From contig JBDSUN010000064.1 of assembly GCA_039927735.1 (NCBI GenBank), positions 1-31,243 of the forward strand: a stretch of DNA of 31,243 nucleotides, written 5' to 3'. Shown here piece after piece: positions 7,053-19,279 of the stretch; position 1 is the first letter of the stretch; the number at the start of each line of letters is the position of its first letter. The notes below the pieces were generated by a model, which saw only the letters and a list, made by a program, of their open reading frames with translations, was not told where the DNA came from and ran no database searches. Position numbers and translations under genes: made by a program. This DNA is from Acidimicrobiales bacterium. GTDB lineage: Bacteria; Actinomycetota; Acidimicrobiia; Acidimicrobiales; VFJN01.

Positions 7053-8036
7053 TCAGTTCTGGTTGGCGCCGTCGAAGATCTCGCTGACGGAGTTGTCTTC
7101 GAAGACGGCGTCGATGGTCTCGGCAAGGATCTTGGCCACCGAGAGCACCTCGATCTTGTCGATCTGCTTGTCGGGCGGCAGTGGCAGGGTGTTGGTGATG
7201 ACCAGCCGGTTGATCGACGAGTTCTTGATGCGGTCGATGGCGGGGCCCGAGAGCACACCGTGGGTGGCCAGCGCGTAGATGTCGGACGCGCCCCGCTCCT
7301 TGAGCTGGTCGGCGCCGGCGCACAGCGTGGCGGCGGTGTCGATCATGTCGTCGATGATCACGCAGGCCCGGCCCTGCACGTCGCCGACGATCTCGATCGC
7401 CTCCACGGTGTTCTTCACGCCCTTCACGCGCCGCTTGTGCACGATGGCGAGATCGGCGTGGAGCACGTTGGTGTAGCGCTCGGCCACCTTCACCCGACCG
7501 GCGTCGGGGGACACCACCACGAGGTCCTCGGGGAGGTGGGCCTTGATGTAGTCGACCAGCACGGGCATGGCGGTGAGGTGGTCGACGGGGCCGTCGAAGA
7601 ACCCCTGGATCTGACCGGAGTGCAGATCCACCGACATGAGGCGGTTGGTGCCCACCGCTGCGAACATGTTGGCGACGAGCTTGGCCGTGATGGGCTCCCG
7701 GCCCTCGGCCTTGCGGTCCTGGCGGGCGTAGCCGTAGTTGGGGATGACGGCGGTGATGCGCTTGGCCGACGCCCGGCGGGCGGCGTCGATCATGATCAGC
7801 TGCTCCATGATCACGTCGTTCACCGAGAGCTCCTCGGTGGCGCCGTGGGTCTGGATGATGAAGACGTCGGCGCCCCGCACGTTCTCACCGAGCTTGGAGT
7901 GGATCTCCCCGTTGGAGAACTCCACCAGGTTCGGGTGCCCGAGCTCCACGCCGAGGTGGTCGGCGATCTCGGCGGCCAACGGGAGGTTCGACCGCCCCGC
8001 CAGCAGGTGCAGCCTCTTCTTCGTGACCAGCTCCAT
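7053..8036 (-). CDS. prs: Ribose-phosphate pyrophosphokinase
   Basis: FSNGEI, YGYARQDRK, DLHSGQIQGFF, SPDAGR and DDMIDTA. Confidence 0.97.
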   Translation of the reverse strand: MELVTKKRLHLLAGRSNLPLAAEIADHLGVELGHPNLVEFSNGEIHSKLGENVRGADVFIIQTHGATEELSVNDVIMEQLIMIDAARRASAKRITAVIPNYGYARQDRKAEGREPITAKLVANMFAAVGTNRLMSVDLHSGQIQGFFDGPVDHLTAMPVLVDYIKAHLPEDLVVVSPDAGRVKVAERYTNVLHADLAIVHKRRVKGVKNTVEAIEIVGDVQGRACVIIDDMIDTAATLCAGADQLKERGASDIYALATHGVLSGPAIDRIKNSSINRLVITNTLPLPPDKQIDKIEVLSVAKILAETIDAVFEDNSVSEIFDGANQN

Positions 8037-8044
8037 GGGTCCCC

Positions 8045-9148
8045 TCAGCGCGTTGCGGTGCCCGAAGTGTAGAACGCGCCGGTGCGCGTGCCGGTCGGGA
8101 GATCCGTGCCGGGCTCCAGAGCGGCGTAGGGACCGACCACGCAGTCGTCCCCGATGGTGCTCAGGCGGGCCACGGTGTGCTCGAGGGTGGTGTGCTCGCC
8201 CACCGTGCAGTCCACGAGCCGGCAGCCCGGCCCGATCTCCACGCCGGCGCCGATGGTGGTGCGGCCCTGGAGGATGGTGCCCGGGAAGAGGGTCACGTCG
8301 GCGGCCAGCGACACGGTGGTGTCGACGTAGGTGGAGGCCGGGTCCACCATCGTCACGCCCCGGGCCAGCCACTCGGCGTTGGTGCGGGCCCGGAGCTCGG
8401 CCTCGGCGTGGGCCAGCTGGGCTCGATCGTTGATGCCGTGGGTCTCGTCGGCGTCGGCGGCCACCACCGTCACCACCCGGTGCCCGGCATCGGCCAGCAC
8501 CTCCACCACGTCGGTGAGGTAGTACTCGCCCTGGGCGTTGTCCGGGTGCACCATCCGCAGCGCGGGCGCCAGCAGGCTGCGCCGGAAGCAGAAGATGCCG
8601 GTGTTGATCTCGTCGATCTCCAGCTCGTCGGGGGCAGCGTCGCGCTGCTCCACGATTCGGGCGACGCGGTCGTCCTTGCCCAGCCGCACGATGCGGCCGT
8701 AGCCAGTGGGGTCGCCGAAGCGGGCGGTGAGGATGGTGCAGGCGGCGCCGGAGTGGCGGTGCTCCGCCACGAGGTCGGCGACGGTGCGGGCCCGCAGCAG
8801 CGGCGTGTCACCCGGCAGGACGAGCAGGTCGACGTCGTCGTCGAGGTCGTCATCGGGCAGGCCGGTGAGGCCGACGGCCACGGCGTCGCCCGTCCCCCGC
8901 TGGACGGCCTGCTCCACGAACTCGAGGCGCAGGCCGGCACTGTCCTCGGTGAGCTTCTTGGTCACTCGCTCCGCCCCGTGGCCCACCACCACCACGGCAT
9001 GGTCGATCTCGGCGGCCGGCAGCGCATCGAGGACGTACAGCACCATGGCCCGCCCGCACAGCAGGTGCAGCGGCTTGGGCCGGGTCGACCGCATCCGCGA
9101 CCCCTCCCCGGCAGCCAGCACGACAGCGGACAGGCGACGTTCGCTCAT
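8045..9148 (-). CDS. glmU: GlmU-type GlcNAc-1-phosphate uridyltransferase, C-terminally truncated (367 aa; acetyltransferase site missing)
   Basis: LAAGEGSRMRS, GTGDA, GDTPL, GYGRIVR, EINTG, NAQGEYYLTD and GINDRAQL, followed by a partial left-handed beta-helix. Sits in the canonical slot before prs. Confidence 0.92.
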   Translation of the reverse strand: MSERRLSAVVLAAGEGSRMRSTRPKPLHLLCGRAMVLYVLDALPAAEIDHAVVVVGHGAERVTKKLTEDSAGLRLEFVEQAVQRGTGDAVAVGLTGLPDDDLDDDVDLLVLPGDTPLLRARTVADLVAEHRHSGAACTILTARFGDPTGYGRIVRLGKDDRVARIVEQRDAAPDELEIDEINTGIFCFRRSLLAPALRMVHPDNAQGEYYLTDVVEVLADAGHRVVTVVAADADETHGINDRAQLAHAEAELRARTNAEWLARGVTMVDPASTYVDTTVSLAADVTLFPGTILQGRTTIGAGVEIGPGCRLVDCTVGEHTTLEHTVARLSTIGDDCVVGPYAALEPGTDLPTGTRTGAFYTSGTATR

Positions 9149-9253: not shown

Positions 9254-9709
9254 TCAGCCGAGGCGCTCGGCGTCGACGTCGCCCTCGACGACCTGGACGT
9301 AGTAGCGGCCGTCGAGGCCGTCGGCGGTGACGGTGTCGATGTCGACGGTCTCGCCGTCGCTGAGGACGACCGCGACCGAGGTGGTGTTGCTGGCGGCCTT
9401 GCCGAACACGACGGTCTGGTCGCCGAAGGTGGCGTCCTGGGGGGTGAGGGTGCAGGCGCCGGTGAGCTGGGCGCCGTCCTCGTAGAGAAAGGCGCAGAAG
9501 TCCCCCTCGACGTCGCGCAGGGCGTCGACCCGCCACTCGACGCCGTCGAGGGTGCCCTCGTCGAGGGTGACGGATCGCTCGGCATCCGGGTCCTCCTGCT
9601 GGTTGAGGGCGGCGCCTACGACGAAGCCGACGATCACCACCGCCGGCAGGAGCAGCGCGATGGTGAGGCAGCCGGGGCCTGAGCGCTTGGCTTCGGGGTT
9701 GGAGGGCAT
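9254..9709 (-). CDS. Membrane-anchored hypothetical protein (151 aa) with an acidic extracytoplasmic domain and a Cys pair
   Basis: N-terminal TM segment LTIALLLPAVVIVGFVVGAAL and high GC3. The upstream ORF extension overlaps the tRNA and was discarded. Confidence 0.8.
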   Translation of the reverse strand: MPSNPEAKRSGPGCLTIALLLPAVVIVGFVVGAALNQQEDPDAERSVTLDEGTLDGVEWRVDALRDVEGDFCAFLYEDGAQLTGACTLTPQDATFGDQTVVFGKAASNTTSVAVVLSDGETVDIDTVTADGLDGRYYVQVVEGDVDAERLG

Positions 9710-9712
9710 GGG

Positions 9713-9785
9713 CTCGGGGGGGAGGACTCGAACCTCCAACAGCCGGCTCCAAAGGCCGGTGTTCTGCCAATTGAACTACCCCCGA
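9713..9785 (-). tRNA. tRNA-Gln (anticodon TTG); CCA not encoded
   Basis: Full cloverleaf: TCGGGGG/CCCCCGA acceptor, GTTC/GAAC D-stem, CCGGC-CTTTGGA-GCCGG anticodon arm, GGAGG-TTCGAGT-CCTCC T-arm, discriminator G. Located upstream of glmU as in other actinobacteria. Confidence 0.97.
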
Positions 9786-18445: not shown

Positions 18446-19090
18446 TCAGGTGTAGCCGAGCTGGCGGGAGCAGTGGGGCCACTGGCCCCAGCCGGCGCGG
18501 GCCTGGAGGATCTTGCCGCGGTGGATCTGCTCGTCCCGGGAGGCCTGGTGGGGGTAGCCGGCACCGCCGACGTTCTGCCAGGAGGCCAGCGAGAACTGGA
18601 GGCCGCCGTAGTACCCGTTGCCGGTGTTGAGGCCCCAGTTGCCGTAGCTCTCGCACTGGGCCAGGCGGTCCCAGGCGGCGGGGTCGTTCGGGTCGCCGGG
18701 GCCGGCGCTCGGCAGCGCCGGCGGGGCGGACGCGGCGGGGGGAGGGGGCGGAGCGGCGGTGGTCGTCGGCGAGACGGGTGCCGGAGCCCGGAGGGCCTGC
18801 ACCGCCGGGGCCTGGGTGGTCGGCGGCGCCTCCGTGGTGGAGGTGGTCGTCTCCGGCGCAGCCGTCGTGGTGGGTGCGACGGTGGTCGTGGTGGTGGTAG
18901 GACGCATCGCGGCCGTCACGACGTTGCGGCGTTGCGACGAGGAGCTCACCTCGTCGGCGCTGGTCAGCACCTCGACCCGGTCGTCGCTGGTCTCGGCGGT
19001 GGCCGGAAGGTTGTCGATCAAGAGCACGGGGAGCGCGGCCAGCGTGATCGCCGCTGCCAAGGCCAGTCGGCTGCGCTGGGCGCGAGCCAT
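18446..19090 (-). CDS. Resuscitation-promoting factor (Rpf) family lytic transglycosylase (alternative start 19204)
   Basis: C-terminal WDRLAQCESYGNW...NGYYGGLQF...W...EQI..G...G.GQWPHC, N-terminal signal/anchor and Thr/Pro-rich linker. SD GAGGT precedes ATG 19090. Confidence 0.93.
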   Translation of the reverse strand: MARAQRSRLALAAAITLAALPVLLIDNLPATAETSDDRVEVLTSADEVSSSSQRRNVVTAAMRPTTTTTTVAPTTTAAPETTTSTTEAPPTTQAPAVQALRAPAPVSPTTTAAPPPPPAASAPPALPSAGPGDPNDPAAWDRLAQCESYGNWGLNTGNGYYGGLQFSLASWQNVGGAGYPHQASRDEQIHRGKILQARAGWGQWPHCSRQLGYT

Positions 19091-19213
19091 GGGAGCGACC
19101 TCGAGGTCCTCGACGTCAGGGCTGGGGGCGATCTCAGCCCGCAGTGCCGTCGTTCCCGCCAGGTGGCGCGGGGTCGGTCGCTGCCGATGGGGCCCTGAAC
19201 GCATCCGGGGGAC

Positions 19214-19231
19214 GTTACGCAGGTTCGTAAC
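19214..19231. promoter_or_regulatory. Inverted repeat GTTACG-N6-CGTAAC overlapping a candidate rpf -10 box (TAACGT, 19212..19217, minus strand)
   Basis: Perfect 6-bp dyad in a locally AT-richer intergenic segment. Confidence 0.5.
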
Positions 19232-19279
19232 ACGATTGCAAACAACAGGCTTGTGATTCGGCGAACGCCGGTTCGACGG

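Follow-up and report, generated by a model that had tools for sequence, protein, structure and literature searches.

As an antibacterial target, GlmU is regarded as universal, essential and bifunctional. An engineered fragment of the Escherichia coli enzyme, GlmU-Tr331 (331 amino acids (aa), PDB 1FWY/1FXJ), consists of the uridyltransferase domain with a stump of the beta-helix and is reportedly trimeric, possessing uridyltransferase activity only. Natural GlmU proteins restricted to the N-terminal part, e.g., that of Polystyrenella longa, were recently described in a preprint (Fong et al., 2026, bioRxiv 10.64898/2026.06.23.733835), whose authors infer that the acetyl group has to be supplied by an acetyltransferase yet to be identified; these variants originate from species possessing a eukaryote-like uridyltransferase, NagU, and belonging to other phyla, and no Acidimicrobiia are named in the accessible part of the preprint. 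The object of the present analysis is a short glmU gene located on a stretch of 31,243 nucleotides (hereafter, the window; contig JBDSUN010000064.1 of the assembly GCA_039927735.1) from the genome of an Acidimicrobiales bacterium, designated G000 and represented by 411 contigs with 81% completeness. It is probable that GlmU of this organism is naturally shortened to a monofunctional N-acetylglucosamine-1-phosphate (GlcNAc-1-P) uridylyltransferase, that a single truncation in the common ancestor of Acidimicrobiales gave rise to this form, and that acetylation is performed by a separate enzyme. This reading is carried by four direct observations: the truncation itself, its phylogenetic spread, the disappearance of all active-site sequence of the C-terminal part, and the fact that the genes for the adjoining pathway steps are retained. 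The idea of an N-terminal-only GlmU is already known from other phyla (Fong et al., 2026). New here are the order-level scope of the truncation, a separate event in a genome of another order (G124), the complete loss of GlmU in the genus g7 and in the genome G141, and a falsifiable candidate gene for the acetylation step; our literature search found no paper naming both GlmU and Acidimicrobiia.

The short GlmU shares with the bifunctional enzymes of E. coli and Mycobacterium tuberculosis (Mtb) the genomic slot (ksgA-ispE...glmU-prs, directly upstream of prs), the N-terminal uridyltransferase domain with the LAAGxGxRM signature, the catalytic residues and the first coils of the beta-helix, the identity to Mtb GlmU being approximately 45% (estimated by eye) over the aligned part. 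Unlike these enzymes, it stops at position 344 of the 452 positions of the NCBIfam profile TIGR01173 (residues 7-359 correspond to profile positions 2-344; 350.4 bits, under the cut-off of 366.85), and the whole site for acetyl-CoA and glucosamine-1-phosphate (GlcN-1-P) is missing. The matches to all eleven GlmU equivalog models of NCBIfam end near the same point, covering the first three quarters. The protein is thus a GlmU orthologue that falls outside the bifunctional family, given its sub-threshold score and the absent active-site region. In phmmer searches of PDB, residues 8-361 aligned with residues 9-360 of the 495-residue Mtb GlmU, and residues 1-360 with residues 1-348 of the 456-residue E. 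coli GlmU. The Mtb positions R19, K26, Q83, G88/T89, D114, G151, E166, N181 and N239, which we take to be functional or catalytic residues of the uridyltransferase, are all retained in the phmmer alignment, in agreement with the first-pass annotation of this DNA, made from the sequence alone, which had described the uridyltransferase motifs as intact.

The C-terminal part of the protein differs sharply from that of the full-length enzymes. Where Mtb GlmU has the motif LRPG, the short GlmU has LEPG, with Glu in place of the equivalent of Arg333, and in the alignment with full-length GlmUs the protein ends just before the FVE.K...HLxYxGD block, the rest of the C-terminal region being absent. This block presumably holds the acetyltransferase residues Lys351, His363 and Tyr366 (E. 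coli numbering). Translation of the window at 8045-9148(-) gives ...GAFYTSGTATR followed by TGA, and the complete beta-helix with the acetyltransferase site (profile positions approximately 345-452, with Lys351, His363, Tyr366, Asn386 and the C-terminal arm) was not found. Both the replacement of Arg333 and the absence of the acetyltransferase region, noticed already in the first-pass annotation, were thus reproduced in the alignments to the Mtb and E. coli enzymes, and the comparison with TIGR01173 proposed there gave the sub-threshold match described above. Its statement that a frameshifted remnant is impossible also held: since only 8 nucleotides separate the stop codon from prs, no frame is left for a remnant or a continuation. 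Judging by its sequence, the protein would have lost the acetyltransferase activity of GlmU. With its intact N-terminal domain and a beta-helix that breaks off ahead of the acetyltransferase site, it resembles GlmU-Tr331 (residues 4-342 correspond to residues 4-330 of the crystallized chain), from which it differs in being natural, about 20-30 residues longer and evolutionarily fixed across the order. By analogy with the engineered fragment, the leftover stump of the beta-helix (roughly six coils, as counted by eye) probably serves only to keep the protein trimeric. The natural variants of Fong et al. (2026) likewise keep only the uridyltransferase part.

The distribution of the truncated gene was analysed in three sets of genomes: 40 relatives (24 congeneric ones and 16 representing other families within the order), 120 genomes sampled evenly across the class, and 300 further Acidimicrobiales genomes from 72 families and 179 genera, 284 of them of high quality. 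A few unpublished genomes entered the tallies (G004 among the relatives; G160, G204, G242 and G271; G535 in the tally of 301 genomes given below), none of them being decisive alone. Among the 40 relatives, the match to GlmU stops at profile position approximately 344 in every complete gene, the remaining genes being fragments. The same end point was observed in more than 60 independent genomes, including the single-contig genomes G003, G058, G105 and G149, with no internal stops, and within the genus the GlmU proteins are 75-88% identical over their full length. In the class set, 25 genomes of the same order possess the short GlmU and four have no GlmU match, while about 85 genomes of other orders encode the full-length protein (profile positions 2-450, E values from 1e-148 to 1e-169). 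Only one match better than 1e-112 was obtained in the set of 300 genomes, and none among the 284 high-quality ones. The short GlmU is, therefore, a shared derived trait of the order Acidimicrobiales, the sister orders of the class having the full-length enzyme. This order-wide fixation of the same end excludes an assembly deletion at position 8045, which the first-pass annotation had named as a possible refutation. The lone match reaching the C-terminal region among 301 genomes of the order (G674:C460:23-1138, profile positions 66-451) comes from an assembly that is 6% contaminated; this piece of GlmU opens a small contig there and is probably a contaminant.

In a collection of 5.8 billion proteins, the close relatives of the short GlmU are 335-377 aa long and, wherever a taxonomic name is given, belong to Acidimicrobiales. 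Homologues of 367-372 aa with 99-100% query coverage back the start codon at position 9148, and the tails following the semi-conserved GPFY motif vary among the relatives in both length and sequence. An exact-sequence database look-up with the GlmU protein of the window returned no records. Many of the short homologues carry the annotation 'bifunctional ... acetyltransferase', which is wrong for proteins of this 367-aa type and calls for caution with automatic annotation of such sequences.

Shortening of GlmU is not confined to this order. In G124, which belongs to a different order within the class, the GlmU protein has approximately 250 aa and consists of the nucleotidyltransferase domain only, without the beta-helix (L077:1755-2582:+, G124:C3), its gene occupying the same ksgA-ispE-glmU-prs slot; this truncation is independent of the one in Acidimicrobiales and more severe. 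GlmU matches ending at profile positions 343-372 were obtained in other Actinomycetota families as well (e.g., in G172, G228, G243 and G275). Since short GlmUs occur in several lineages of Actinomycetota, the truncation arose repeatedly. In two of these genomes, G243 and G275, a separate open reading frame of approximately 420 aa matches GlmU positions 240-435 and may represent a split acetyltransferase. Furthermore, no GlmU homologue was found in four Acidimicrobiales genomes of 1.7-2.1 Mb and 98-100% completeness: three of the genus g7 (G030, G129 and G145) and G141. These genomes keep GlmM scoring above its cut-off, a long GlmS, MurA and the candidate GNAT considered below; the loss of GlmU with GlmS, GlmM and MurA retained implies that another uridylyltransferase operates there. 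A search for a UDPGP/NagU-type uridyltransferase (PF01704) gave no matches, and as the control genomes gave none either, this negative result is unvalidated.

The steps flanking the GlmU reactions are preserved in G000. Its GlmM is canonical (500.7 bits, above the cut-off), a GlmS-like gene lies directly downstream of glmM, and MurA is present. With these three proteins retained, the cell still produces glucosamine phosphates and still depends on UDP-GlcNAc, hence a separate acetyl-adding enzyme would be needed. In the mechanism that we propose, the beta-helix would have been cut once, just before the acetyltransferase site, in the ancestor of Acidimicrobiales and the shortened protein retained since; GlmS and GlmM would make the glucosamine phosphates, a separate replacement enzyme would acetylate GlcN-1-P or glucosamine-6-phosphate (GlcN-6-P), and the short GlmU would then produce UDP-GlcNAc to be consumed by MurA. 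The first-pass annotation had proposed that the glmU-prs slot holds an enzyme with uridyltransferase activity only and that acetylation depends on a non-orthologous step; this is supported by the fixed truncation and by the retained GlmS, GlmM and MurA. The glmU paralogue whose discovery could have overturned it was looked for: no second glmU was found in the 81%-complete G000 with TIGR01173, and the left-handed beta-helix (LbH) proteins detected in this genome include none of the GlmU type, matching the acetyltransferase region of GlmU (profile positions approximately 305-440) at the generic LbH level only, with E values of 4e-11 or weaker. With 81% completeness, the absence of a gene from G000 is weak evidence, which weighs against the proposed reading, and the argument is carried by the complete relatives, such as G030 (2.0 Mb in two contigs, complete), where a single weak C-terminal LbH match was obtained.

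If so, a whole bacterial order, common in soil, wastewater and aquatic samples, would have lacked the acetyltransferase half of GlmU since its origin, and a few of its lineages have dropped GlmU entirely with GlmS, GlmM and MurA retained. The question raised by the preprint, who acetylates glucosamine phosphate without the C-terminus of GlmU, becomes testable in a genome-rich group and with one concrete candidate.

Several other explanations of the short gene were considered. It could be an artefact, produced by a deletion in the assembly, by a frameshift or by decay of the gene into a pseudogene, and the fragmented state and incompleteness of G000 would permit this; but the end point shared by more than 60 genomes, the absence of internal stops, the within-genus identity of 75-88% and the 8-nucleotide gap before prs refute such an explanation, and we regard its probability as negligible. 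Retention of both activities, with an acetyltransferase site rebuilt in the remaining coils, appears very improbable. Some LbH acetyltransferases, e.g., PglD, do function with about 100 helix residues. Yet at the position of Arg333 the relatives carry Glu, Gly, Gln or some other residue, no His, Lys or Asn is conserved in the stump or in the variable tail, and G124 is devoid of any LbH; besides, the engineered E. coli Tr331 fragment of Pompeo et al. is said to have no acetyltransferase activity.

Two further possibilities concern the order and the source of acetylation. The short GlmU might uridylylate GlcN-1-P, with a sugar-nucleotide N-acetyltransferase adding the acetyl group to UDP-glucosamine (UDP-GlcN) afterwards, and such a route would agree with the canonical GlmM, by which GlcN-1-P is probably made, and with the presence in G000 of LbH proteins resembling, by eye, the sugar-nucleotide acetyltransferases NeuD/PglD and WlbB. 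However, the genes of these LbH proteins sit in variable polysaccharide clusters, only one weak C-terminal LbH match exists in the complete 2.0 Mb genome G030, and the Asn at the position of Mtb N181, which we take to contact the N-acetyl group, is retained in the short GlmU; we consider this route improbable. Obligate salvage, in which imported GlcNAc or recycled wall fragments are phosphorylated, the short GlmU only uridylylates the product and no GlcNAc phosphate is made de novo, is an unlikely alternative too, albeit one worth keeping in mind, given that some aquatic actinobacteria consume GlcNAc and that no proven acetyltransferase emerged from the searches of G000. It is at variance with the retention of GlmS and of GlmM scoring above the cut-off even in streamlined genomes of 1.7-2.1 Mb, with the lack of another known use for GlcN-1-P, and with the breadth of the order, obligate dependence being hard to imagine over approximately 180 sampled genera with genomes of 1.5-7 Mb. 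Among the three acetylation routes proposed in the first-pass annotation, the evidence points most, though faintly, to a GNAT-type enzyme and least to a stand-alone LbH enzyme, whereas salvage is kept as the unlikely option just described.

Returning to the reading of a monofunctional GlmU complemented by a separate enzyme, the strongest candidate so far for this role is a GNAT protein of 143-148 aa (G000:C356:342-785(-)). It was revealed when the streamlined genome G030 was searched for PF00583 GNATs and the nine proteins obtained were screened for conservation in G000. That this order-core GNAT, recognizable by the motifs LIPQLS, WxEDVxVD and DLTSRPSR, is the acetyltransferase acting on a glucosamine phosphate in UDP-GlcNAc synthesis is a tentative suggestion, more doubtful than not. 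Its motif WIEDVVVD aligns with HIEDVVVD of the glucosamine-6-phosphate acetyltransferase GNA1 of Trypanosoma brucei (TbGNA1; PDB 3fb3/3i3g; PMC4964394), in which the Glu-Asp stretch makes up the beta4 bulge touching the GlcN-6-P amino group, the general acid being a Tyr (PMC4964394). E80, D81 and Y128 are invariant in 17 orthologues of the GNAT, as are the motifs LIPQLS and DLTSRPSR. Like the eukaryotic GNA1 enzymes (PDB 1I12, 3CXP, 3I3G), the protein has approximately 145 aa and the GNAT fold with the Glu-Asp pair in the beta4 bulge and the general-acid Tyr (AlphaFold model with a predicted local distance difference test score, pLDDT, of 92.8). It was found in 295 of 301 genomes of the order, covering 72 families. 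In the class set, 29 of the 30 genomes of the order gave a strong match, the thirtieth containing a fragment at a contig end, and the GlmU-less genomes were among those possessing the gene; a control GNAT occurred in only 18 of the 30. Outside the order, strong matches in the class set were limited to G124, where the candidate lies approximately 20 kb from the gene of the 250-aa GlmU, and to the genus g79.

A number of observations speak against this assignment. No amino-sugar gene was ever found near the GNAT, its neighbours in one family being NUDIX, PAC2 and HTH_67 genes; in G000 it is translationally coupled to a paralogue of citrate synthase with CBS domains, and in G124 it stands between polyamine-type ABC permeases and agmatinase (by eye). 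The top matches in both sequence and fold are generic acetyltransferases (1z4e, PaiA, AAC(3), RimI and Naa30), with GNA1 ranking lower: in the profile comparison 1z4e was the best (2e-16), TbGNA1 the fourth (1e-9), and human GNA1 followed with 2e-5, and in the structural searches TbGNA1 had rank 24 in Foldseek, the top 50 of VIA-align containing no GNA1. Consequently, GNA1 is the closest characterised relative of the candidate by neither sequence nor structure. None of the NCBIfam models scored above its cut-off on the protein. The gene co-occurs with the full-length GlmU in the genus g79, the family f54 and one genome of the family f67, and in the phylum sample the short-GlmU lineages of the families f61, f70 and f90 are not represented in the 22 genomes matched by the GNAT. 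Finally, G124 and g79 have the control GNAT in common with the order as well, if only weakly, and a part of the pattern may therefore reflect relatedness rather than function. In terms of the co-occurrence with short glmU that the first-pass annotation suggested profiling, the picture is mixed: the GNAT is core to the order and present in G124, but it also accompanies full-length GlmU and is not found in the other short-GlmU lineages. Should the assignment nevertheless be true, a whole order of free-living walled bacteria would use an eukaryote-like GNAT step in UDP-GlcNAc synthesis, and the earlier presence of the GNAT would have let GlmU lose its acetyltransferase half and later, in g7 and G141, the whole GlmU. 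As to the locus of the candidate in G000 (L075, G000:C356:342-2395(-)), the citrate-synthase paralogue carries an N-terminal CBS pair and the GNAT starts five bases past its stop codon; genes appearing by eye to be PAC2-like and NUDIX-like adjoin this pair.

Other proteins were tried as the replacement and rejected. The LbH proteins of G000, collected with TIGR01173 and Hexapep searches, belong by eye to other families (WlbB/WbpD-like, WbbJ-like, CysE-like, DapD, NeuD/PglD-like and ManC-like), the WlbB/WbpD-like one adjoining DegT and Gfo/Idh/MocA genes. An 828-aa fusion of NTP-transferase, short LbH and phosphohexomutase domains occurs throughout the sampled relatives; the contig end interrupts it in G000 (G000:C151:1032-2972), whereas the copy in G019 (L050:1215-3701:-) is complete. 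It has its best matches among mannose-1-phosphate guanylyltransferases and archaeal-type GlmM/phosphomannomutases (PMM), and its LbH, too, ends before reaching an acetyltransferase site. The GlmS encoded directly downstream of glmM is unusually long (1142 aa; G000:C118:1604-5032(-), the same locus as L033:526-3954:-). It has the Cys1 amidotransferase start, followed closely by an insertion of approximately 190 aa in the N-terminal region, and SIS domains; its C-terminal extension, conserved and approximately 320 aa long, gave no Pfam match and a poor AlphaFold model (pLDDT 66). Such a long GlmS occurs in roughly half of the sampled class, with or without a short GlmU; its extension was rejected as the replacement, being present in many orders with full-length GlmU and not found in four genomes of the order, i.e., showing no co-variation. 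The best-scoring GNAT located 3-5 kb downstream of glmS in the relatives is RimI of the alr-tsaEB-rimI-tsaD operon, a GNAT near NTP-transferase genes in G030 is RimJ-like and stands beside MobA and GalU (by eye), a GNAT on the contig C186 has a MshD-like appearance, and the contig C252 carries a GlmM paralogue identified as a PMM, which lies within an apparent manB-manA cluster.

The features of the window around the short glmU are compiled in the table.

Features of the glmU-prs locus in the window (positions counted from the first letter of the stretch)
Feature	Position	Strand	Remarks
glmU, short coding sequence	8045..9148	(-)	367 aa and TGA stop at 8045-8047; TIGR01173 positions 2-344 of 452
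Nucleotidyltransferase (uridyltransferase) domain	8453..9127	(-)	residues 8-232; LAAGEGSRM signature; Pfam PF00483 (3.2e-20) and PF12804
Left-handed beta-helix stump	8069..8386	(-)	residues ~255-360; Pfam Hexapep at residues 282-311; aligned to Mtb GlmU up to residue 360
Non-repeat tail TSGTATR, seven residues	8048..8068	(-)	differs among relatives
Spacer between glmU stop and prs start	8037..8044	(-)	8 nucleotides, GGGGACCC
prs, ribose-phosphate pyrophosphokinase, 327 aa	7053..8036	(-)	canonical downstream neighbour of glmU; ATG at 8036
Conserved hypothetical gene upstream of glmU	9254..9739	(-)	N-terminus hydrophobic by eye, membrane-anchor-like; not an acetyltransferase
tRNA-Gln (anticodon TTG)	9711..9785	(-)	upstream of the glmU-prs unit

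In L052, a locus syntenic with this one, the 158-aa counterpart of the hypothetical gene located upstream of glmU has no Pfam match, and the prs counterpart possesses the Pribosyltran_N, Pribosyltran and Pribosyl_synth domains (Pfam). Read at its longest, the hypothetical open reading frame (9254-9739) runs with its 5' end into the tRNA-Gln gene (9711-9785), and a later start codon is therefore probable. Elsewhere in the window, the open reading frame 18446-19279(-), together with a gene of the Pfam family Transglycosylas in L052, may point to rpf, which the first-pass annotation ascribed to the organism.

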